In this document: positions 18,088 through 58,401 of the stretch, piece after piece | Layout of the letters: every line of letters begins with the position of its first letter | Numbering within the stretch: the first letter of the stretch is position 1 | NCBI GenBank assembly: GCA_965200245.1 | Contig: CBDATS010000004.1 | Span: forward strand, 192,001-256,000 | Direction: 5' to 3' | Length of the DNA stretch: 64,000 bases | Source of the DNA: a bacterium | GTDB lineage: Bacteria > UBA8248 | Notes under the pieces: model-generated | Told to the model about the DNA's origin: nothing | What the model saw: only the letters and a program-made list of their open reading frames with translations | Database searches by the model: none | Program-made: the position numbers and the translations under genes

Positions 18088-19302
<1,215 letters not shown>

Positions 19303-19337: not shown

Positions 19338-21443
19338 CTATACCGCCTCGACTACCGTGCCGGCGTTTTTCGCCATCAGTTCCTCGGAAAGTTGCCGTGG
19401 CATTTCTTCGTATCGACCGAACTGCATGGTGTAGGTTGCCCTGCCCTGGGTCATCGACCTTACGTCGGTTGCATAACCAAACATTTCCGAAAGCGGAACG
19501 GAGGCATTCACCACCTTGGCGCCCGCCCTGTCTTCCATCTCGCGAATCCGCCCTCGTCGGGAGGTGAGATCTCCCATGACGTCACCCAGAAAGTCCGAGG
19601 GACAAACGACTTCCATATCCATGATCGGTTCCAGCAGGACCGGCTTCGCCTTCTTCGCAGCTTCCCGGAAGGCCATGGAGCCTGCGATTTTGAAGGCGAT
19701 CTCCGAACTGTCGACCGCATGGAACGACCCGTCGAAAAGCGTGACCTCAATGTCGAGCAACGGATATCCGGCCATAACGCCGTTTTCCATGGCTTCCCTG
19801 ACACCGTTCTCGACCGCCGGAATGTATTCCCTTGGAACCACGCCACCTACAATCTTGTTGACGAACTGAAAACCGCCGCCGGGAGCAAGCGGTTTGATGG
19901 TAATCTCCACATCCCCGAACTGGCCGCGTCCACCGGACTGGCGTACGAAGCGACCCCTCGCGGTGGCCTCAGCCCGAATCGTCTCGCGGTAGGCGACCTG
20001 GGGTTTGCCCACGCTGGCCTCCAGCGCGAATTCGCGGAAAAGCCTGTCCACCAGAATCTCCAAATGCAACTCGCCCATGCCGGAGAGGATAGTCTGCGCC
20101 GTTTCTTCATCCGAGCACACCCGGAAGGTCGGGTCCTCATCGGATAGCCTCGCCAGGGCGTTGCCAAGCTTGTCTTGGTCCGATTTCGTTTTCGGTTCCA
20201 CGGCGATGGAGATGACAGGTTCGGGGAAGTTGATAGTTTCAAGAAGGATAGGATGAGATGGAGCGCAGAGAGTATGGCCCGTTTTGGCCTGTTTGATGCC
20301 CAGGGCGGCGACGATGTCGCCAGCGTGGGCCTCCTGTATCTCCTCGCGCTTGTTTGCGTGCATGCGCATGAGGCGTCCTACGCGTTCCTGCTTGCCGGTG
20401 ATCGTGTTCAGCACGGAAGAACCCGATTTCAGCACGCCGGAGTATATGCGAATGAACACCAACTGGCCCACATAGGGATCCGTCATCACCTTGAAGGCGA
20501 GCGCGCAGAGCGGCTCTTCGTCCGAGGGCACTCTTTCCTCAGGCTTTCGGCCCAGTTCCAAATCTTCATCCGACAATTCAGCCTGAACAGGGGGAATATC
20601 AAGAGGAGAGGGAAGATATTCGACGATTGCGTCGAGAAGGAGTTGAACACCCTTGTTCCTAAACGCAGAGCCGCATACGACGGGAACGAATTCACCGCAG
20701 ATCGTTCCCTGCCGGATCGCGGCCCGGATCTCCTCGGGAGCAATTTCCTCGCCTTCCAAGTATTTCTCCATCAAAGAATCGTCGAACATCGAGAGCGTGT
20801 CGAAAAGCTTTTCCCTCAAATCATCGGCTGCGGCCCGGACCTCCTCGGGCACTTCTGACTCTTCGTAGGATGCACCCATCGGGTCGTCGAACACCCGTGC
20901 CTTCATGGTCACGAGATCGACCATGCCCAAAAAGTTCTCCTCCGCCCCGATGGGCAGTTGAAGCACAAGCGGGTTTGCCGCGAGGCGCTCCCTCACTTCC
21001 TCGACCACCCTTTGGAAATCGGCACCCGTCCTGTCCATCTTGTTGACAAACACGAGCCGGGGCACGCCGTATTTCTCCGCCTGCCGCCAGACGGTCTCGC
21101 TTTGCGGCTCCACGCCACCAACGGCACAAAAAACCGCCACCGCGCCGTCCAGGACGCGCAGGCTTCTCTCCACCTCGGCCGTGAAGTCCACGTGGCCAGG
21201 CGTGTCGATGATGTTAATGACGTGATCTTTCCAGGCGCAGCGCGTCGCCGCGGAGGTAATGGTGATGCCGCGTTCCTGTTCTTGCGCCATCCAGTCCATG
21301 GCGGCCGCGCCATCATGCACCTCGCCCATCTTGTGGGTCCTGCCCGTATAGAACAGGACGCGCTCGGTCGTCGTCGTCTTGCCGGCATCAATGTGTGCCA
21401 TGATGCCGATGTTTCTCGTATTCCTGAGCGCTTCGCTGGGCAC
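19338..21443 (-). CDS. fusA: Elongation factor G
   Basis: [24 protein letters not shown]; likely GTG start at 21443. Confidence 0.99.
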
Positions 21444-21463
21444 GGTCTTACCCTTCCCTCGGC

Positions 21464-21931
21464 CTACCAACGATAATGAGCGAAGGCCTTGTTCGCCTCC
21501 GCCATGCGGTGTGTGTTTTCTCTCAGACGAACAGCGCCACCCGTATCGTTCGCTGCGTCCATGATCTCGGCGGCGAGGCCGTTCGCAATCTTCCTGTCCC
21601 GGCTGCGGGCGTTCTGAATGATCCAGCGGATGCTGAGTGCCGTGCGCCTGTCGGGTCGTACTTCCACAGGCACCTGATAGGTGGCGCCACCCACACGCCT
21701 GGAGCGAACCTCCAGAGCAGGCTTCACGTTGTCCATGGCACGCTTGAAGACCTTGATGGGGTCTTCCTTCATCTTCTCCTCCACCACGTCCATCGCTCCG
21801 TAGAATACCCGTTCGGCCAAGCTCTTCTTCCCCTTGAGCATCAAGGAGTTAATAAACTTGGTCACAAGCCGGTCATTGAACTTCGGATCCGGCAAAACGG
21901 TTCTTTTCGTAGCCCTTTTTCTTCTCGCCAT
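21464..21931 (-). CDS. rpsG: 30S ribosomal protein S7
   Basis: [24 protein letters not shown]. Confidence 0.99.
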
Positions 21932-34150: not shown

Positions 34151-34226
34151 TGGCAGGCCAGGAGGGACTCGAACCCCCAACCGCCGGATTTGGAGTCCGG
34201 TGCTCTGCCAATTGAGCCACTGGCCT
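34151..34226 (-). tRNA. tRNA-Trp (CCA)
   Basis: Cloverleaf, anticodon arm CCGGA-CT-CCA-AA-TCCGG, GTTCGA, encoded CCA end. Confidence 0.97.
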
Positions 34227-34253
34227 GTGAAAACCTTTTTCTGCTTCCTGAGA

Positions 34254-35468
<1,215 letters not shown>

Positions 35469-35666
35469 AAAAATACCTTCAGGGAGAGAGGAACCATTTC
35501 CTCCCTTCTACCTTACCATTCCCGAAAAACGCACTTTATACCCACTCGGCTGAAATCTTGTCCATCGCCACAGGGAAAATCGGCAAAACCCAGAGAGCGC
35601 AAGGCGTTTCATACAAATTACAAGATAATGCACAAACCTCAAATTATCAATGAATCTCACCCGCCC

Positions 35667-35742
35667 TGGAGCCCACGACCGGACTTGAACCGGTGACCTC
35701 TTCCTTACCAAGGAAGTGCTCTGCCGGCTGAGCTACGTGGGC
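35667..35742 (-). tRNA. tRNA-Thr (GGT)
   Basis: Anticodon arm CTTCC-TT-GGT-AA-GGAAG, CCA end. Confidence 0.97.
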
Positions 35743-35919
35743 CGACTACACCAAGGGCTCGCGAACGTCATTTATTTCAGCCGAAGCAACCTCATCGAAT
35801 GATGAAACCGGAGAGGCGTTCCGGGCGAATAATACAACTTATTCCGGCCAGGGCAACCCCAAAAGCCGAAAGTCACATGAATCAAACAAATACCAAGGCG
35901 GAAAATCCCCGACTCGTCC

Positions 35920-35995
35920 TGGAGCGGGAAACGGGGCTCGAACCCGCGACCCTCAGCTTGGAAGGCTGATGCTCTACCATCTGAGCTATTCCCGC
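35920..35995 (-). tRNA. tRNA-Gly (TCC)
   Basis: GCGGGAA acceptor, TCAGC-CT-TCC-AA-GCTGA, CCA end. Confidence 0.97.
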
Positions 35996-36041
35996 CTCTA
36001 AATCCAAAGCGCACGTCTCGCTCATCACAATATTCATCTTA

Positions 36042-36126
36042 TGGTGGGGAGGGGAGGATTCGAACCTCCGAAGGCTGAGCCGTCAGATTTACAGTCTGAT
36101 CCCTTTGGCCACTCGGGAACCTCCCC
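36042..36126 (-). tRNA. tRNA-Tyr (GTA)
   Basis: TCAGA-CT-GTA-AA-TCTGA, long variable arm, CCA end. Confidence 0.97.
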
Positions 36127-36288
36127 TGGAAACCAAGCCCAACAAAACAAACATAAATGCTATCAGAAAATTTCGCGGAAACCATCTGTTCCCCGAAACC
36201 GCCGCATCCATCCAAACCCGTAAAGAGATAACGCAGGCGACTTTCAGCCGGATTATCTGCTGCGGGGTCCTAAAGGCGCGTCCCGCCG

Positions 36289-36364
36289 TGGAGCTGGCGA
36301 GAGGACTCGAACCTCCGACCTGCTGATTACAAATCAGCTGCTCTACCAGCTGAGCTACGCCAGC
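36289..36364 (-). tRNA. tRNA-Thr (TGT)
   Basis: GCTGA-TT-TGT-AA-TCAGC, CCA end. Confidence 0.97.
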
Positions 36365-45760: not shown

Positions 45761-45964
45761 GTTTCGTTCTCCCGTAATCTCCTTTTCCGATTGATGTGGA
45801 AAAAAATTTTTATTTTTCCTAGAATATGGGATATCTTCCGAAGTTGGAAGGAAGAGGCACATCGCAATCCGGGAAACACGCCGGAAGCATCTGTGGATGT
45901 TACGACCAGCGCCCGATGGGTTCCGGGCAGTTGCGAGCGCGGAATCCTGATTAAGGGGTGAAAA

Positions 45965-46588
45965 ATGGAATCACCGGACTCTGTCATCAAGATATATGAT
46001 CGCTGGGGCAAATTCTACGACCTCGTATTCAAGAACGTGTTCAACGAGGGCAGAAACGTCTGTGTCGATATGCTCGACCTCCAGCCGGGCGAGAAACTGC
46101 TGGAAGTGGGCGTGGGCACCGGACTCTCCCTGCCGCTCTACCCGTCGACTTCCGAGATCATCGCCATCGACATCTCTTCGAAAATGCTCGAGAAGGCGAA
46201 AGAGAAAGTCGAGAAGTTCGGCCTCGGCAATGTAAGGCTCGGCGTCATGGACGCGCAGAACATGGAGTATACGGACAACACCTTCGACTGCGTCACCGCC
46301 TGCTACGTGGTAAGCGCGGCCCCCGATCCGCACAAGGTCGTCTCGGAGATATGTCGCGTGTGCAAGCCGGGCGGGCGTATCGTTTTCATCAACCATTTCA
46401 AGAGTCAGAAATTCCTGCTGGCGAAGTTCGAAGAACTCATCAACGGTGTTTGCAAGAAATTCGGCTGGGAGACCACCCTGGACCTCGAACCTCTGCTCGA
46501 GGCGAACAACCTGACTCTCGAACGCCAGGAGCGCGTGAACATCTTCGACTACTGGCGCGCGGTACTCTGCATCAATCCCGACAAATAA
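45965..46588 (+). CDS. Class I SAM methyltransferase, PmtA-like phosphatidylethanolamine N-methyltransferase
   Basis: YDRW..FYD.VF, LEVGVGTGLSLP.Y, RVCKPGGRI...NHF. Confidence 0.8.
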   Translation: MESPDSVIKIYDRWGKFYDLVFKNVFNEGRNVCVDMLDLQPGEKLLEVGVGTGLSLPLYPSTSEIIAIDISSKMLEKAKEKVEKFGLGNVRLGVMDAQNMEYTDNTFDCVTACYVVSAAPDPHKVVSEICRVCKPGGRIVFINHFKSQKFLLAKFEELINGVCKKFGWETTLDLEPLLEANNLTLERQERVNIFDYWRAVLCINPDK

Positions 46589-46651
46589 CCTCATTGGCCA
46601 CCACTCCAATGGCCCGGTGCGTGGCGCAACCGGCCACCCGGCTTAAGTGAA

Positions 46652-47560
46652 ATGAATCTCGAACCGAACACCTATGGCGTATTGCTCGGTGCGATAGCCT
46701 CGGCCGCATGGGCGGTTTTCGTCTATTTCATCAAGCGCGCGCTGATGAACGCACCGGTCCTCAAGGTCACCGCCGCCGTCACGACCACAAACGCCGTTCT
46801 CGTAACGCTCATCGCTATCGGCTTCATCTCGATCGACGATTTTCAGGGCGCCACCAAGTCCACTCTGATGTTCGCCTTCATCGCAGGCTTTTTTCATATC
46901 GGCATCTCGCGTTCGTTCTACTACCGCGCCATCCACCGCATCGGGCCCAACCGAGCCATCCCCATCGCGCTGACGTATCCCGTCGTCACGGCCGTGGGGG
47001 CGTCGTTCATGCTTGGGGAGACGCCGACGATCTCCATCTTCACCGGTCTCGCGATTCTCCTTGTCGGCATCACGCTCATCGTTCAGGCCGAACCATCCCG
47101 GGATGCGGAATCGAGCGAGCACGGCGCGAGATGGAAGCTCTTCGGCTGGATTTCCGCGGGCGTCACCTCGCTCTTGTGGGGCGTAGCAGCTATTTTCTTC
47201 AAAAAAGCGTCCCTGAACCTCCATCCTCTCGCCACCACCGTGATAGCGCTCTGGGTCGGGTCTGCCACCGCCACGCTTCTCATGGCACTCGACAGGGGAG
47301 AGGAATCGCGCGGATCCATTCCCGCTTCGGCCTGGATGTGGATTTTCGCCGCGGCCGTTTGCCAGTCGATCGCCGTACCTTTTTATAACTTCGCGTTCGT
47401 CTACACGCTGTCCGTGCGCGTGACGGCCCTCGTTTCCGCCCAGCCTCTCATCGTCCTGGTGCTAGGTTGGCTATTCCTGCGCGAGATGGAGAACATCACA
47501 CCCCGGCTCGTCCTAGGCGCACTCCTGACCGTCGCAGGCACCATATTCGTCATCATATAA
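46652..47560 (+). CDS. EamA/DMT-family transporter
   Basis: ~10 TM helices in two EamA repeats. Confidence 0.88.
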   Translation: MNLEPNTYGVLLGAIASAAWAVFVYFIKRALMNAPVLKVTAAVTTTNAVLVTLIAIGFISIDDFQGATKSTLMFAFIAGFFHIGISRSFYYRAIHRIGPNRAIPIALTYPVVTAVGASFMLGETPTISIFTGLAILLVGITLIVQAEPSRDAESSEHGARWKLFGWISAGVTSLLWGVAAIFFKKASLNLHPLATTVIALWVGSATATLLMALDRGEESRGSIPASAWMWIFAAAVCQSIAVPFYNFAFVYTLSVRVTALVSAQPLIVLVLGWLFLREMENITPRLVLGALLTVAGTIFVII

Positions 47561-47667
47561 AGTATATTAAGTCGAGAAAGGGTTCTCTTCTCCCCCTCGG
47601 GATGCTACTCTTGGACCTCCAATCACCCAGAAAAAATTCTGAAATCTTATCCGACAAGGAGAACAAA

Positions 47668-48144
47668 ATGAGCGAAGTCATTCACGTCACTAAAGCCCGG
47701 ATTGTCAAGGAACCCGGCAGGGGTATGAAGACGGGCTATCTCGACGCCTTCCCTGAGGACCCGATTCCCTACGGCATCCACGGAGGCATCAAGAACTTCT
47801 ACAAGGCCGAAACCGAAGAGGAGCGACCAGCCACGCTGGATCACCTCGCAGCCGCCGTCGCCGGGTGACTGACGGGCAACATGGGAGGCGCGCTGGATGC
47901 GCGCGGAATCAAGAGCAGCCCAGACAATCTCGTGGCAGAAGTGGAAGGCATCATCGAAAACGTGGACGGCATGGCCTTGGTCACCAAGATCAAGGTTCAC
48001 TACAAGTGCCGCATCCCCAAGGGCAACCGAGAAGAAGCAGAGCGCGCCCTCGCCGTGCACGAGAAGGGCTGCCCGGCCAGCCAGAGCGTGCAGCGGGGCA
48101 TCGCGGTCGAATATACGGCGGAGTTCGAAGAAGTGGACGAATAA
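47668..48144 (+). CDS. OsmC/Ohr-like thiol peroxidase, probable selenoprotein (UGA=Sec at codon 67)
   Basis: AAGGAG RBS and ATG at 47668; in-frame TGA at 47866-47868 in LAAAVAG*LTG; frame continues to HEKGCPASQSV and TAA at 48144 (158 aa). Confidence 0.85.
47888..47904 (+). promoter_or_regulatory. Candidate bacterial SECIS hairpin
   Basis: GCGCGC-TGGAT-GCGCGC stem-loop; loop starts 25 nt after the UGA and has G at its second position. Confidence 0.65.
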
Positions 48145-48373
48145 ATGGTGTGGGGGGCACCCCTCTCTCGTGATACGGTAAAATCCTGCACGGTCAAGCG
48201 CGGACCTGGACTTCTCGCTTTGCATGCAGCACCCGATTTTGCCTGTGTGGCAGTCCTTCCCCGGGGCTGCCGCAAGGTTTTCGGGCCGCCCGTACCACCA
48301 TATCGAGCCTTTGTTTCCTTCAGAGCAGATACACCGATCCACCACTATGATTCATTCTGGTTTTCAGGCTTTC

Positions 48374-50203
48374 CTACACGAACACGATACCGTAGCGATA
48401 CCGCCGGTCGATCGCCCACGCCATGCACAGGGAGAACCCGGCCAGGAGAGCGAGTCCGACCGCCTGTTCCCAGGTACCGACGAGCAACGCGCCCGCAAGG
48501 AACATCAACGAGAAAACGAAGACACTCAAGGCCAGCCACAGACCCGCAAGAGCCAGCATGGGCGCCGAACGCAAATCCGGCCCGCGAACCCGGTTCCATG
48601 CGCCCGGCGGACGTACTTTGAGCCAGAACATCCGCAAGACATCGGAGCGCACAGGTCTCGTGAGAAGCGTAACTGTCATCATCACCACGAAACCGACGCC
48701 CACTTCCGCCGCCAGCAAAACGGGAAATTCGGGCGGCTTCCCCCCCCAATGGAGATAGAGGGCGGTCACGCCTGCGGCGAGCATCCCTGAAACTTCCGTC
48801 CAGGCGTTCGCACGCCACCACAGCCAGCGCAGGATCACCGGAAGGCCCAGCCCCGCTCCGAGTGAAATGTGGAACTTCCACGCCACCTCGAGACTATTGA
48901 TCTGCCCTGCCACGGCGAACGCGCCGAGCGCCATTATCAACACGCCCAGGCGGCTCACGAACAAGACTTCCCTCGTGCCCGCTTTTTTTCGAATGAATCG
49001 TGCATACATGTCGTTCACGAGATAGCTCATCCCCCAGTTCAGGTGCGTGTCTACCGTGCTCATGAACGCGCCCAAAAGACCCACTATCACCAAACCCAGC
49101 ACCCCCGCCGGAAGGAGTTTCTCCATCAGGAGGGGATAGGCGGCCTCTCGGTCGGCCAGAATTTTCGCCTCTATCGTACCTGGGAGCACATCCATCCCTT
49201 TGGGGACCAGAATCAGGCTCACGAGGCCGACCAATATCCACGGCCAGGGTCTCAAGACGTAGTTCGCCACCGTAAAGAGGAAAGCGCCCGCTTGAGCGTC
49301 CCTCGGCGAGCGCGCCGAGCACAGCCTCTGTCCGATGTAGCCGCCGCCGTCGGCATTGTTGTGTGCCCACCAGACGACGAACAGGTATATCAAAATCACT
49401 TGCGCACCCGCCCATCCCGCACCCTCGGGTGGAAAGAAGGAAAGAATTTCCGCGGCACCTTTGGCGCCGTAAATCTCACCCAGCTTCACGCTCAGGCCGG
49501 AGAGCCCGCCCACAGCTTCCACGGCATACCAGGCGAAGAGACAACTGCCCGCCATCGCTATCAAGAACTGGAAAAGATCGGTGAGCATGACGCCCCTTAT
49601 TCCGCCCGCACTCGAATATGCCGCTATCATCAAGACGAGCAGAGCGACCGTTACGCTCTCGTTCACGCTACCCATCGTGAGTGCGGCGGGCCAGTTCGCC
49701 TGTATCGCCGCCCAGAGGGCAGGCGGGAGAACCTTCTCCCACTTGAGGAAGGGCTCGGCTATCTTTGCCATGGCACGAAACACCCAACCCAGAACGATCA
49801 GGTTCACGATGAGGGAGGAATAAACGGCCTTGAAGCCGCGCAGGAACGCGCCGGGTCCGCCGCCGTAGCGCAACTCGATGAGTTCGGCGTCGGTCACCAC
49901 GCCCGCGCGCCGCCACAGGGGGGAGAAGAAGACCGCGACACCTACGTTGCCGATGACCCACGCCCACCAGAACCAGTTCCCGGAAATCCCGCGCTTCGCG
50001 ACGATACCGGCCACGACGAGGGGGGTGTCGGAGGCGAAGGTGGTCGCCACCATCGAGATTCCAATCCACCACCAAGGGAGGCTGCGCCCTGCCACGAAGT
50101 AGGAAGCCAGGCTCTTCGATGCCGAACGAGAGGTGATCGTGCCGACCAGCAGCGCGAACGCGATGTAGGCGAGGATGAATGACCAGTCCAGGGCAGAGAG
50201 CAT
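48374..50203 (-). CDS. Sodium:solute symporter (SSS family)
   Basis: YFVAGRSLPWW, SMVATTFASDTP, AFMSTVDT; ~14 TM helices. Confidence 0.93.
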   Translation of the reverse strand: MLSALDWSFILAYIAFALLVGTITSRSASKSLASYFVAGRSLPWWWIGISMVATTFASDTPLVVAGIVAKRGISGNWFWWAWVIGNVGVAVFFSPLWRRAGVVTDAELIELRYGGGPGAFLRGFKAVYSSLIVNLIVLGWVFRAMAKIAEPFLKWEKVLPPALWAAIQANWPAALTMGSVNESVTVALLVLMIAAYSSAGGIRGVMLTDLFQFLIAMAGSCLFAWYAVEAVGGLSGLSVKLGEIYGAKGAAEILSFFPPEGAGWAGAQVILIYLFVVWWAHNNADGGGYIGQRLCSARSPRDAQAGAFLFTVANYVLRPWPWILVGLVSLILVPKGMDVLPGTIEAKILADREAAYPLLMEKLLPAGVLGLVIVGLLGAFMSTVDTHLNWGMSYLVNDMYARFIRKKAGTREVLFVSRLGVLIMALGAFAVAGQINSLEVAWKFHISLGAGLGLPVILRWLWWRANAWTEVSGMLAAGVTALYLHWGGKPPEFPVLLAAEVGVGFVVMMTVTLLTRPVRSDVLRMFWLKVRPPGAWNRVRGPDLRSAPMLALAGLWLALSVFVFSLMFLAGALLVGTWEQAVGLALLAGFSLCMAWAIDRRYRYGIVFV

Positions 50204-50374: not shown

Positions 50375-51538
50375 TCAGCGAGCCACGAAAGTGCGGTGCA
50401 CCCAACGGTTGTTCCCGCGCCGGACTTCCATGTACAACGCTTCGTCCGCCATGCGCGTTTCCAGGTTCATGCCGCCCGGCATAGCTCTCGAAACGGACTT
50501 CGCGGCACGCGCGGCATCGATGAACGCGGCGACCTCGGCAAGCGTCGGCTGTTTGCGTTTGCGCACTCCTGTTTCCGCGATGGCCTCCGTCGCAGCTGCC
50601 CTCAACTGGCGCGGCCACACCTTCCGGAACAGATCAGGGCTTCCGAACTCATCGCCGCTATTGAGCCGGCCACCAACTGCGAAGACATATCCCACTGCGT
50701 CGGGGTGCGCATCCAGCAGACTTCTCAAGGCTTTTTCATAGTCCACGAGGGCCGAGGCGAGGCACTTGTTCTCCAGGGACAACTGGAGGCTCGTGCGCGA
50801 GCGCCTGTCGGTGACCCGCGCCCCCACGGTCATGCCCAACGAATCCTGCACCATCCCGACCGACCGCCAGACTTCATTCTGAAGTGATCGGCCACTCGCT
50901 CGCCGACGCGCCCCCTGTGAAATTCCCGACCCAATTCGTATCCCTGACATCCCGATTCGATCGGCCTCGTGAACGGTCTCGATCCCCATTCTTTTCAAAA
51001 TTGCAATCTTGCCGGCCCGCGAGGGCATGCGGTATGCGGATGCCGAAAACTCGCTCACCTTCTCACGGCCGCGACCTGCCCATCTTCCCGACTCGACACA
51101 AAAGGCGCCTATGGGGAGGTAGCCCGAATGCGGGGGGATGATCTGGCTGGTGACCAGGACGCGGTCCTGCTTGCCTCCCTTGACGATGTCGCCTGCCTGA
51201 ATGAAAACTTCACGAGCACCCAGATTACGGACCATGAGTTGCTTGACGTTGCCGGTTTCGATGACCTTGACGAGACCCTCCTTCATCGCCTCGTCCAGGG
51301 TGACCGGCGTGGGACCCGTGCCTCGGCCCTCGCGGTGAATCAGATAGACGGTGAGATTGTTCTGCGTGTAGGGACCACTCAAGCGATAGTCTTTCATTGC
51401 CTTGGCAGAAGCCGTAGCAGGCGGCAGCCCGATTGCGATTACACACGCGGCTAAAACAGCGGCACCATACCCCATCAGCAGTCCAGAAGTCGCCCGCACC
51501 CGGCTGAAAAGGCGCGTTTTCGAAAACTCTGTGTGCAT
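50375..51538 (-). CDS. Exported ARPP-1/DUF6569-like protein
   Basis: Signal-like N-terminus; NLTVYLI, TLDEA, GDIVKGGKQDR and FCVESGRW motifs recalled for this family. Confidence 0.72.
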   Translation of the reverse strand: MHTEFSKTRLFSRVRATSGLLMGYGAAVLAACVIAIGLPPATASAKAMKDYRLSGPYTQNNLTVYLIHREGRGTGPTPVTLDEAMKEGLVKVIETGNVKQLMVRNLGAREVFIQAGDIVKGGKQDRVLVTSQIIPPHSGYLPIGAFCVESGRWAGRGREKVSEFSASAYRMPSRAGKIAILKRMGIETVHEADRIGMSGIRIGSGISQGARRRASGRSLQNEVWRSVGMVQDSLGMTVGARVTDRRSRTSLQLSLENKCLASALVDYEKALRSLLDAHPDAVGYVFAVGGRLNSGDEFGSPDLFRKVWPRQLRAAATEAIAETGVRKRKQPTLAEVAAFIDAARAAKSVSRAMPGGMNLETRMADEALYMEVRRGNNRWVHRTFVAR

Positions 51539-51770: not shown

Positions 51771-54017
51771 CTAGTTGTGGTTTCCGTTCGTCTTCAGTCG
51801 GCCCAGGACCTCCAGCACGTGATCAGGCGTGATGGGAATACGCGTGATGCGCGCGCCTATCGCCTGACCCGCGGCACAGGCCACTGCCGCAGCTCCTGCC
51901 GTGCAGGGAGGCTCGCCGATGCCCTTCGCACCGTAGGGACCGAGGCCCTCACCGGATTCCAGGATCACATTGTCCCACTCGGGCGTATCTACCGAGGTGG
52001 GGATGAGGTAACCGTGGAACTCGTTGTTCAGGAGCGCACCCTTTTGCGTGAGTACCTCTTCGGTCAGGGCATGGCCGACACCCATCATGGTGCCGCCCTC
52101 GAACTGCCCTTCCACGTGCTGCAGGTTGATGGACTGGCCCACATCGTGTCCCGACCAGTAGTTGAGTACACGAAGTTCGCCCGTATCGACGTTCACCTCG
52201 ACTTCGGCCGCGTGGATGCCGAACACATAATCCATCCAGCCGCCCGCGTCGCCGTATTGCTCGTTGCCCTCATACTCGTGCACGCCGAGCTTCGTCTTGC
52301 CCACGGTATGGAGATCGATCCCCATCTTCCTGCACTGGGTCACGGCCTCTCCGAAGGAGACTCCACGTTCCTCGGAGGCTTTCACGTAAGCGCGCCCGTC
52401 TCGAATATCCAGGTCATCGGGGTTCGCTTCCAGAAGCTCCGCAGCGCCTTTGAGGATTCTGTCTTTCAGTTCCGCCGAGGCGCGATAGCACGCACCGCCC
52501 GAGATCATCGTCTGGCGACTTCCCGCAGTTACGCCCACGAGCGGGGTGACGTGAGAATCCGACATCGTCACCGTCACGTCTTCGAGTGTTATCCCCAAAG
52601 CCTCGGCGGCTATCTGGCGGTTCGTCTGCATCTGGCCGGCGCCTACGTCCGATGCACCCGAGCGCACGCTCACGCTGCCATCCTCGTCAACGCCAACGTA
52701 GACCTCACCTTCGTTTCTCGGCCTTCCGTATCCGCCGATATTGGCAACCACGCCGACGCCCACGCGCCAGGGGCCGTGGTCTTTCTCGGGCACCCGGCCC
52801 GCCGGGCGGCCGATGAGCTTTTTCGTCTCCTCGACCAGTTCGGGCAACATCACGCGAGAAGGCACGGGCTGGTTCTGCATGAGGGTCTCGCCCTTGGTGA
52901 TGAAGTTCATCTCCCGAAACTCGAGCGGATTCATACCCAACCGCGCGGCGAGTTCATCCATCTGCGCCTCATAGGCGAAGCACACCTGGTTCGCGCCCAC
53001 GCCGCGCATCGCCTCGGTGAAGGGATTGTTCGTCCTGACGGCGCGTGCGCGGCCCCGTGCGTTCGGGATTTCGTAGGGGCCGCCGCTCACTACGAGCGCG
53101 CCCAGTAGCAAGCCCTTGCTGTTGGCCGTGTAGCCGCCAGCATCGCCGATAATGTCGATTTCGGTAGCAGTAAGCCTTCCGTCTTCCGTAGCACCCGTCT
53201 TGTATTTCATGAGGAAAGGGTGTTTCTTACTGCCCGTGTTCATGGTTTCTTCTCGCGAATAGGCCATGCGCACGGGTCGCTCCGTACGGATCGATAAAAG
53301 CGCCATGAAGGCACCGAGGAGGGGGTGCTCCTTGCCGCCGAACGCGCCGCCCAGCATCGGACAATCATAACGCACGCGACTCAGGGGCAAGTTCAGCGTC
53401 CGCGCTACGTTCTGGTAGTTTTCGATCATCTGCGTGGGCACACGGATGTTTACCACCCCACGTTCGTCCACCCAGGCGACGCCGCCTTCGGGCTCGATGA
53501 AGGCATGATCCAAGCAGGCAGAGAAATAGGTATTCTCGACGATCACGTCCGCCTCGGCGAAGCCCGCCTCGATGTCTCCCTTGTCCGTCTTCCAGTCGCA
53601 GACCACTTCGCCTTCCTCGAGCGTGGTGAAGTCATACGCACCGGGCAGCGGATCATAGGCGACACGCACGAGCGAGGCCGCCTCTTCGGCTAGGTCCCGC
53701 GTGTCGGCGGCTACGAGCGCTATGGCGTCGCCGATGTCCAGAACGACGTCATCAGCCAGCACAGGGAAATCAGGATATCGGCCCGCATTCAGCCCGGGAA
53801 TGTCCTTCGCTGTGAGGACGCAGTGTACCCCCGGAAGGGCGAGTGCCTCACTCGTGTCTATTTCCAGTATCCGCGCAGGTGTCATAGAGGCACGGACGGC
53901 TTTCCCGTAAATCTCGCCCGGCATATGGAAATCATCGCCGTAGACCGTATCGCCGACCGCCTTCGCCAAGGCGTCTTCTTTCGTCGGCGACGCGCCGACA
54001 TGCGTCAACTGAGCCAT
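51771..54017 (-). CDS. Xanthine dehydrogenase-family molybdopterin-binding subunit
   Basis: GGAFGGK, AMRGVG, TAGSR, EGQFEGG, GAKGIGEPP. Confidence 0.93.
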   Translation of the reverse strand: MAQLTHVGASPTKEDALAKAVGDTVYGDDFHMPGEIYGKAVRASMTPARILEIDTSEALALPGVHCVLTAKDIPGLNAGRYPDFPVLADDVVLDIGDAIALVAADTRDLAEEAASLVRVAYDPLPGAYDFTTLEEGEVVCDWKTDKGDIEAGFAEADVIVENTYFSACLDHAFIEPEGGVAWVDERGVVNIRVPTQMIENYQNVARTLNLPLSRVRYDCPMLGGAFGGKEHPLLGAFMALLSIRTERPVRMAYSREETMNTGSKKHPFLMKYKTGATEDGRLTATEIDIIGDAGGYTANSKGLLLGALVVSGGPYEIPNARGRARAVRTNNPFTEAMRGVGANQVCFAYEAQMDELAARLGMNPLEFREMNFITKGETLMQNQPVPSRVMLPELVEETKKLIGRPAGRVPEKDHGPWRVGVGVVANIGGYGRPRNEGEVYVGVDEDGSVSVRSGASDVGAGQMQTNRQIAAEALGITLEDVTVTMSDSHVTPLVGVTAGSRQTMISGGACYRASAELKDRILKGAAELLEANPDDLDIRDGRAYVKASEERGVSFGEAVTQCRKMGIDLHTVGKTKLGVHEYEGNEQYGDAGGWMDYVFGIHAAEVEVNVDTGELRVLNYWSGHDVGQSINLQHVEGQFEGGTMMGVGHALTEEVLTQKGALLNNEFHGYLIPTSVDTPEWDNVILESGEGLGPYGAKGIGEPPCTAGAAAVACAAGQAIGARITRIPITPDHVLEVLGRLKTNGNHN

Positions 54018-54042
54018 TGTCTCCTCCAATATTTTGAAAGAG

Positions 54043-57618: not shown

Positions 57619-57954
57619 GTGAAAACAGAAGCAGGTCTCGACGCCACTTTCTCCGCGCTTTCTGACCCCACGAGGCGGGCCATACTATCACGGCTCTTCC
57701 GGGGGGAAGCCACCGTGACCAGTATTGCTGCACCATTTGATATTTCCTTGCCGGCGATCTCCAAACACCTGCGCGTCCTTGAGCGCGCCGGCTTGGTTCA
57801 CAGGGAAAAAAGGGGCCGCATCCATCACCTGCGCCTTGAGGTCGAACCGATGCGCAAGGCGTCGGAATGGCTGGATTTCCACCAGCGATTCTGGGAAGGG
57901 GGATTCGATACCCTCGCCCGCTACCTCGAAGAAAAAACAGACATGGAGAATTGA
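57619..57954 (+). CDS. ArsR/SmtB-family regulator
   Basis: FSALSDPTRRAIL, SLPAISKHLRVLERAGLV. Confidence 0.93.
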   Translation: MKTEAGLDATFSALSDPTRRAILSRLFRGEATVTSIAAPFDISLPAISKHLRVLERAGLVHREKRGRIHHLRLEVEPMRKASEWLDFHQRFWEGGFDTLARYLEEKTDMEN

Positions 57955-57957
57955 AGA

Positions 57958-58401
57958 ATGCCCGAGACGAACAGTACCCTTGTCATCAAGCGAACCTTCC
58001 ATGCACCACGGGAGAGAGTCTTCGCTTCGTGGACGAGGGCCGAGGAACTCAAGGGTTGGTGGGGAACGGAGGGCCACACCGTGCCCAACGCCGAGATGGA
58101 TTTCAGGGAAGGAGGAAAATTCCGCGTCGAGATGCAGACCGATGAGGGGGAGTCTTTTTATCTAAACGGCGCGTTTTTGGAAATCAATCCGCCTGAACGG
58201 CTCGTCTTCACATTCCGGTGGGAGCGGGGGGAGTGGAACTATCCCGAAACCCGGGTGAGTGTTGACTTTCTGGACAAGGGCGACGAGACCGCCATCCTCC
58301 TCACCCACGAGGGATTCCCGGACAAGAACATGCGAGACGAACACCAAGAGGGCTGGGGCGAGTGCCTCGATAACCTGCACACGAATCTGGGAGGGAGATA
58401 G
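57958..58401 (+). CDS. SRPBCC/AHSA1-domain ligand-binding protein
   Basis: RTFHAPRERVFASWT..WW, PPERLVFT, GWGECLD. Confidence 0.92.
   Translation: MPETNSTLVIKRTFHAPRERVFASWTRAEELKGWWGTEGHTVPNAEMDFREGGKFRVEMQTDEGESFYLNGAFLEINPPERLVFTFRWERGEWNYPETRVSVDFLDKGDETAILLTHEGFPDKNMRDEHQEGWGECLDNLHTNLGGR

Follow-up and report, generated by a model that had tools for sequence, protein, structure and literature searches.

OsmC and Ohr proteins reduce peroxides by a two-cysteine mechanism. They use catalytic Arg and Glu partners and form homodimers, with the active sites located at the interface. Selenocysteine (Sec) versions of the fold have been in print since 2005, when an 'OsmC-like protein' family of three Sargasso Sea sequences, assigned to COG1765 and bearing the motif UxxT, was described (PMC1088965). 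The family was found again, with the motif UxxT, in the GOS data (PMC2398784), and an OsmC-like selenoprotein under COG1765/PF02566 appears in reviews from 2022 and 2026 (PMC9312934, PMC13188914), in the latter again with UxxT. The NCBI model of this catalogued family is NF041052, 'OsmC-related (seleno)protein', of the COG1765/YhfA type.

The window, that is the whole stretch of 64,000 nucleotides analysed here, contains at 47668-48144 what we read as one intact OsmC/Ohr-fold selenoprotein gene, with UGA-67 decoded as Sec through a hairpin at 47888-47904; the probability of this reading is about 0.86. The protein shares with NF041052 the PF02566 superfamily, a Sec in place of Cys on the equivalent helix (AAVAG-U-L versus AALAF-U-L), a second Cys near the C-terminus and a coding-region hairpin after the UGA. 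At the level of models, however, the two are far apart. The window protein scores 18.7 bits against an NF041052 cutoff of 95, whereas the true member P0270 reaches 166.9 bits, and the best E-value among 32 members of the window's family is 9.7e-08, compared with 2.5e-49 for P0270. BLASTP of the window protein against P0270 returns only a short alignment with E = 6.7, in which the two Sec residues stand opposite each other. The motif also differs: P0270 reads U-L-M-T (UxxT), whereas the window's family reads U-[L/M]-T-G with the Thr at +2, in the variants U-L-T-G-N and U-M-T-G-T. The low model score, the BLASTP value and the non-UxxT motif argue for a separate lineage of the OsmC fold. By these comparisons of sequence, the window's family is a lineage apart from NF041052, with a common fold and Sec at the equivalent catalytic position. 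The original prediction cited reports of OsmC-like selenoproteins; such reports exist, but the family that they describe is a different lineage.

The two families co-occur in the Rokubacteria MAG represented by L024, where a bona fide NF041052 selenoprotein gene, that of P0270, is located 1.5 kb from the OsmC-type copy:

L024:1125-1634, minus strand: second OsmC-fold gene, with an in-frame TGA at 1416-1418 (...SAALAF-U-LMTQ...), motif UxxT

A long bulged hairpin (-19.4 kcal/mol) follows directly after the UGA of this gene, which as called consists of a 95-aa C-terminal piece only.

Among cysteine enzymes, OsmC proper is the closest. The best sequence match is the OsmC peroxiredoxin 1ukk (phmmer E 7.7e-05, profile E 3.3e-07), and identity to the OsmC peroxiredoxins of Thermus thermophilus (1ukk) and E. 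coli (1qwi, 1nye) is 18-24%. Both Cys positions align, with Sec in the window protein where these enzymes have the peroxidatic Cys. Against the OsmC model TIGR03562, the window protein scores 29.2 bits with a cutoff of 85.8, and the best of the 32 members gives E 1.1e-08. The match to Ohr (TIGR03561) is more distant, at 20.8 bits with a cutoff of 88.85; the Ohr structures 1n2f, 1zb9 and 6eb4 have the fold in common (Foldseek E ~1e-07 to 1e-06, TM 0.63-0.70) and likewise the two-Cys layout. All 32 family members fall well short of every curated model of an OsmC subfamily, in agreement with the divergent subfamily that had been proposed. Sec peroxiredoxins and glutathione peroxidases, in which Sec attacks the peroxide, are alike by analogy, but they have a thioredoxin fold and no homology to the window protein; the Sec-peroxiredoxin motif is TxxU (PMC13188914). 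No published description of the window's subfamily was found in the literature searched, and the 111 families of BSepDB could include it.

Gene and predicted protein

Under the standard code, the frame is split into two ORFs, 47467..47868 and 47881..48144, which lie in the same frame. The original prediction joined them from an ATG with a strong ribosome-binding site, through the TGA, to a TAA, and placed a GCGCGC/TGGAT/GCGCGC hairpin with its loop 25 nt past the UGA; the sequence bears out each of these elements:

46652-47560, plus strand: EamA-family transporter gene, upstream (Pfam EamA E 2.1e-30)
47656-47661, plus strand: Shine-Dalgarno-like AAGGAG, 6 nt before the ATG, read from the sequence
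47668-47670, plus strand: start codon ATG, read from the sequence
47668..48144, plus strand: predicted selenoprotein coding sequence; 158 codons with UGA-67 counted, followed by the stop codon TAA (48142-48144)
47866-47868, plus strand: in-frame UGA, predicted Sec67 codon at the peroxidatic position
47879-47898: region of an alternative hairpin (alignment columns 14-33), in loci L043-L066 and similar
47888..47904, plus strand: candidate SECIS hairpin, 6-bp G:C stem, loop UGGAU
48070-48072, plus strand: TGC codon of Cys135 (motif GCPAS), the predicted resolving residue

With TGA translated as U, the read-through product has 158 residues, including ...TLDHLAAAVAG-U-LTGNMGGAL... and ...HEKGCPASQSV.... 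Its predicted identity as an OsmC/Ohr-like protein is upheld by a domain match and a fold that both cross the TGA. Pfam OsmC (PF02566) matches residues 52-149 with E 2.8e-13 and 50.6 bits, against a gathering score of 27.5. AlphaFold2, supplied with the 32-sequence family alignment, folds the protein into one compact domain (pLDDT 95.9 for the entire chain, pTM 0.88), in which residue 67 lies within helix 56-78 and Cys135 where helix 121-134 breaks off before helix 136-141. A Foldseek search of the PDB with this model gives 63 matches at E <= 0.001, and all of the 30 best listed are OsmC, Ohr or OsmC-like proteins. The best among those listed are 1ukk (Thermus OsmC; E 1.1e-09, TM 0.70/0.77), 1nye, 1qwi and 2onf (Ta0195; TM 0.76/0.85), aligned over 150-157 columns; the segment ahead of the TGA is therefore part of the OsmC fold. 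At the sequence level, the N-terminal 55 residues show no alignment with solved OsmC proteins by phmmer or the family profile.

Both predicted catalytic residues, the UGA at the peroxidatic position and Cys135 as its resolving partner, fall on the catalytic cysteines of solved OsmC proteins. In the sequence alignment with 1ukk, AAAVAG-U lies opposite AAAHAGC and KGCPAS opposite EGCPVS; in 1qwi, too, the Cys opposite C135 belongs to a GCPVS motif, and the family profile likewise places U67 and C135 on the Cys pair of 1ukk, 1nye, 1qwi, 2onf and 1ml8. Only four columns of the 32-member family alignment are invariant, namely U/C67, L76, R79 and C135, with D58 nearly so. Cys135 is conserved in 32/32 aligned family members, and its codon, at +68 from the UGA, in 80/80 sequences. 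As judged from these alignments, the protein has the OsmC fold, and its Sec67 and Cys135 match the catalytic Cys pair of solved OsmC.

We infer that Sec is inserted and that the protein acts as a peroxidase, as well as its substrate, reductant and dimer state, and propose the following mechanism. SelB carrying Sec-tRNA-Sec would bind the coding-region hairpin at 47888-47904 and insert Sec at UGA-67. The selenolate of Sec67, on the long active-site helix, would then attack a hydroperoxide, as suggested by OsmC homology, and become a selenenic acid. Cys135 of the GCPAS motif would resolve this intermediate into a selenenyl-sulfide with residue 67, and a thiol or lipoyl reductant would regenerate the enzyme.

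Decoding of the UGA codon

A locus scan restricted to one genome per species gives 294 pattern matches, of which 251 are confirmed by tblastn; the best 80 are kept, and all are TGA forms. At protein identities of 56-95%, these 80 loci (best 80 of 251) carry TGA at the aligned codon without exception, which makes 81/81 with the window counted. Their MAG labels are Nitrospinota, Methylomirabilota/NC10, Rokubacteria, Tectomicrobia and, in one case, Armatimonadota. Ahead of the TGA, Gly -31, His -29, Pro -13, Thr -11 and Leu -10 are among the residues identical in 81/81 sequences, with variable codons. The many residues fixed before the TGA despite codon variation show that both halves are selected as protein in one frame.

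Two protein searches supply 268 database relatives. The majority, 161, match the C-terminal part only, in 143 cases from query residues 68-73 onwards; a further 24 match the N-terminal part only, 20 of them ending at residues 64-66. The remaining 83 span the site and have at the Sec column Cys (62), Gly (5), Arg (4), Ser (4), Trp (3), Ala (2), Phe (1), Asp (1) or a gap (1); the Cys total includes P0002, whose gene call contains a frameshift. Published practice asks of a selenoprotein at least two Cys homologues at the UGA (PMC1088965), and here there are the 62 spanning relatives and, in the tree described below, 41 full-length Cys forms. Either a conserved TGA or a Cys had been expected at position 67, and the two together account for all of the loci and most of the spanning relatives. 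The family offers naturally occurring Sec and Cys variants of a single small enzyme that is easy to model, and so lends itself to studying what a peroxidase gains from selenium.

The prediction that pipelines would miss the gene is also borne out. The 143 C-terminal fragments starting just past the TGA include P0004, the window's own 87-aa gene call. Members appear in NCBI and JGI with a length of 86-90 residues, under the names 'OsmC family protein', 'hypothetical protein' or 'organic hydroperoxide reductase OsmC/OhrA', and such short members under generic names indicate that current pipelines do not recognise the family. In hundreds of genomes from nitrite oxidisers, sponge symbionts and methane oxidisers that depend on nitrite, the gene is on record as a pair of pieces that mean nothing by themselves. 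With annotation this fragmentary, the peroxide defences and the selenium demand of these bacteria are under-counted.

Insertion of Trp, Cys or Gly at UGA-67 without selenium, through a suppressor or near-cognate tRNA or a reassigned code, is quite unlikely. It would accommodate the few relatives with Gly (P0003, P0175, P0196, P0227, P0265) or Trp (P0126, P0166, P0258) at the column, and also the fact that no Sec machinery is seen in the window or in the flanks of the 80 loci. The code of the window nevertheless appears standard, as had been claimed. The 24 window genes supported by Pfam stop at TAG (12), TGA (8) or TAA (4), and the sole tRNA-Trp seen in the window has the anticodon CCA; together, these two observations indicate that the code is not reassigned. 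The prevalence of Cys at the column is the Sec/Cys pairing characteristic of selenoproteins, and the constraint on silent sites beyond the UGA, described in the next section, points to an RNA signal acting in cis. P0003 sits inside a clade of TGA-bearing genes in the FastTree phylogeny, and because of this nesting its Gly is most simply a gene call made with TGA=Gly. More generally, the Gly and Trp relatives look like calls under TGA=Gly or TGA=Trp codes and not true substitutions.

As for the machinery, a Pfam scan detects no selA, selB or selD domains among the 38 window ORFs, and Rfam and tRNA scans detect no tRNA-Sec in the window. In 17 of the 80 loci, the 90 ORFs scanned around the gene encode no Sec machinery, and tRNA scans of all 80 loci (best 80 of 251) are negative for tRNA-Sec. 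Among 27 single-TGA read-through candidates in the window, the OsmC-type gene is the only one in which a domain extends across the TGA. Several of the lineages concerned are reported to be rich in selenoproteins: the BSepDB top ten includes three UBA8248 MAGs, labelled Nitrospinota/Nitrospinaceae by NCBI, with 48-54 selenoprotein genes (PMC13326102), and a Methylomirabilota MAG with 63 is cited in a 2026 review (PMC13188914).

It is very unlikely that UGA-67 is a true stop and that the products are a 66-residue N-terminal peptide, an 87-residue OsmC fragment starting at Met72 (ATG 47881), or both. Public gene calls do match such fragments (143 C-terminal and 20 N-terminal, P0004 included), and TGA does work as a stop elsewhere in the window. 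Against this, the N-terminal 66 residues supply strands 10-35 of one confident OsmC fold, and this part aligns with full-length OsmC structures in the comparisons over 150-157 columns. Met72 is not conserved, being Leu in Methylomirabilota-type sequences; the Cys-containing relatives are single full-length proteins; and any fragment would be missing one member of the catalytic pair. It is scarcely credible that the locus is a pseudogene, has recently acquired a nonsense mutation, or owes its TGA to an error in sequencing or assembling a TGC/TGT codon: a lone in-frame stop in an otherwise intact gene fits such an event in one genome, but the TGA is shared by 80/80 independent assemblies (best 80 of 251) from several phyla, and protein-level conservation runs on both sides of it.

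Candidate SECIS hairpin

Bacterial SECIS elements usually lie with a spacing of 16-37 nt. In the window, GCGCGC at 47888-47893 pairs with GCGCGC at 47899-47904, closing the loop UGGAU at 47894-47898. The spacing from the UGA to the first loop base is 25 nt, and loop positions 2 and 3 are G; the hairpin occupies the place where bacterial SECIS elements lie, with a small loop that contains G. Across 74 distinct sequences, the inner four stem pairs are kept in 74, 74, 71 and 66, and the outer two in only 56 and 47. Pairing cells amount to 87.4% in these sequences, compared with 6.5-70.9% when the partner strand is slid by 1-3 columns.

The codons over the hairpin are conserved beyond what the protein requires of them. 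Ala +8 is GCG in 81/81 sequences and Ala +11 in 73/81, whereas other conserved Ala codons are mixed and mostly GCC. Asp +10 is GAT in 34/35, Gly +6 is GGA in 37/41, and Leu +9 is CTG or CTA only. Codons +8, +11 and +9 have the three lowest silent-site entropies among 42 conserved degenerate columns. Of 122 six-codon windows, the one from +5 to +10 has the smallest value (0.38 versus a median of 0.86), so that the minimum of silent-site variation in the whole gene falls at codons +5 to +11, in the hairpin region.

Folding energy does not set the region apart. Compared with dinucleotide shuffles, the native sequence is not above chance over 66 nt (z = -0.89, 39/200 shuffles as good) or over 45 nt (z = -1.29, 26/200 as good). 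Among 500 synonymous recodings per sequence, it is no more stable than the recoded versions, with z +0.45 for the window and a range of -2.06 to +1.02 over 19 sequences. RNAalifold on the 74 sequences finds two consensus pairs only and no covariation. Rfam gives no SECIS or other relevant match at the gathering threshold over the whole window; at E <= 10 over 47600-48200, its sole match is a chance snoRNA (E 1.1). Because the folding energy is within chance, the significance of the hairpin derives solely from silent-site conservation. For comparison, 12.6% of BSepDB entries have no canonical SECIS (PMC13326102).

In Methylomirabilota-type sequences, the minimum-energy fold is usually another hairpin, formed by alignment columns 14-20 with 27-33, with a G-rich loop of 6 nt located 17 nt past the UGA. 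The hairpin of the window's clade is formed by columns 23-28 with 34-39, and both hairpins overlap an invariant GCGCU. About half of the family seems to use the 14-20/27-33 hairpin instead. The pattern is read as an RNA-level constraint centred on the invariant GCGCU, with a surrounding stem that appears to differ by clade, and the SECIS may shift its position within one family. Existing knowledge of how Sec is encoded is unchanged by the OsmC-type gene; what the family offers is a case of a SECIS seemingly differing between clades around a fixed core.

Family history and gene neighbourhood

The FastTree phylogeny comprises 131 rows (80 Sec, 41 Cys, 10 other), with 50 of its 124 forks unresolved. 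It leaves out L041, which is cut by a contig end, the frameshifted P0002, and 31 more spanning relatives whose length does not fall within 140-175 aa or which fail to cover residues 35-145. The window falls within an all-Sec clade of 42 rows with support 99. The next clade, of 88 rows, is mixed, with seven Cys forms scattered among the Sec forms. At least three Sec/Cys changes are needed in the family, a minimum on a weak tree because many forks are unresolved.

A broader account of the family can be offered tentatively, at somewhat less than even odds. It would be a second OsmC-fold selenoprotein family, independent of the UxxT family, widespread in Nitrospinota, Methylomirabilota/Rokubacteria and Tectomicrobia, and systematically truncated by gene callers. 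Its SECIS would have moved between two overlapping hairpins that share the invariant GCGCU, with the loop 25 nt past the UGA in the window's clade and 17 nt in the Methylomirabilota type, and the family would have undergone at least three Sec/Cys switches.

Rokubacteria and Methylomirabilota MAGs carry two gene types, ~80% and ~59% identical to the window. The Methylomirabilota MAG SMAG_U16276 holds three family loci (L027, L030 and L079). The protein of L046, labelled Nitrospinota, is identical to that of L045, from Methylomirabilales, and L055, labelled Armatimonadota, is nested among Methylomirabilota. The pattern of these six loci suggests paralogues together with binning or labelling inconsistency in public MAGs.

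The OsmC-type gene follows the EamA transporter gene, as the original prediction stated, and may be co-transcribed with it; the gap between the two is 107 nt. A scan of 45800-48500 for promoters and terminators finds no promoter-like site, and terminator-like sites occur on the minus strand only, at chance level. In the 17 sampled loci, EamA is upstream in two (L001 and L020 only), and no gene neighbourhood is conserved across phyla. The order methyltransferase, EamA and OsmC-type gene, with a convergent SSF transporter, is common to close relatives only.

Other genes of the window can be placed beside these. A gene for a molybdopterin-binding subunit of the xanthine-dehydrogenase family (51771-54029, minus strand) is adjoined by one for an ARPP-1 domain protein (50375-51538, minus strand); in L035 and L039, a molybdenum-enzyme gene of the xanthine-dehydrogenase family is located directly downstream of the OsmC-type gene. 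An ArsR-type regulator gene and an AHSA1/SRPBCC-type gene at 57619-58401 were considered as one read-through gene and rejected, as their Pfam domains do not span the TGA. The ArsR-type gene stops at the TGA at 57952-57954, and the AHSA1/SRPBCC-type gene begins 4 nt further on in the same frame. Two ORFs of 392 aa on the minus strand, 18092-19270 and 34258-35436, flank the rpoBC/ribosomal-protein region. By their position, next to a 710-aa ORF (19338-21470) and a tRNA cluster (34151-36364), they look like a duplicated tuf.
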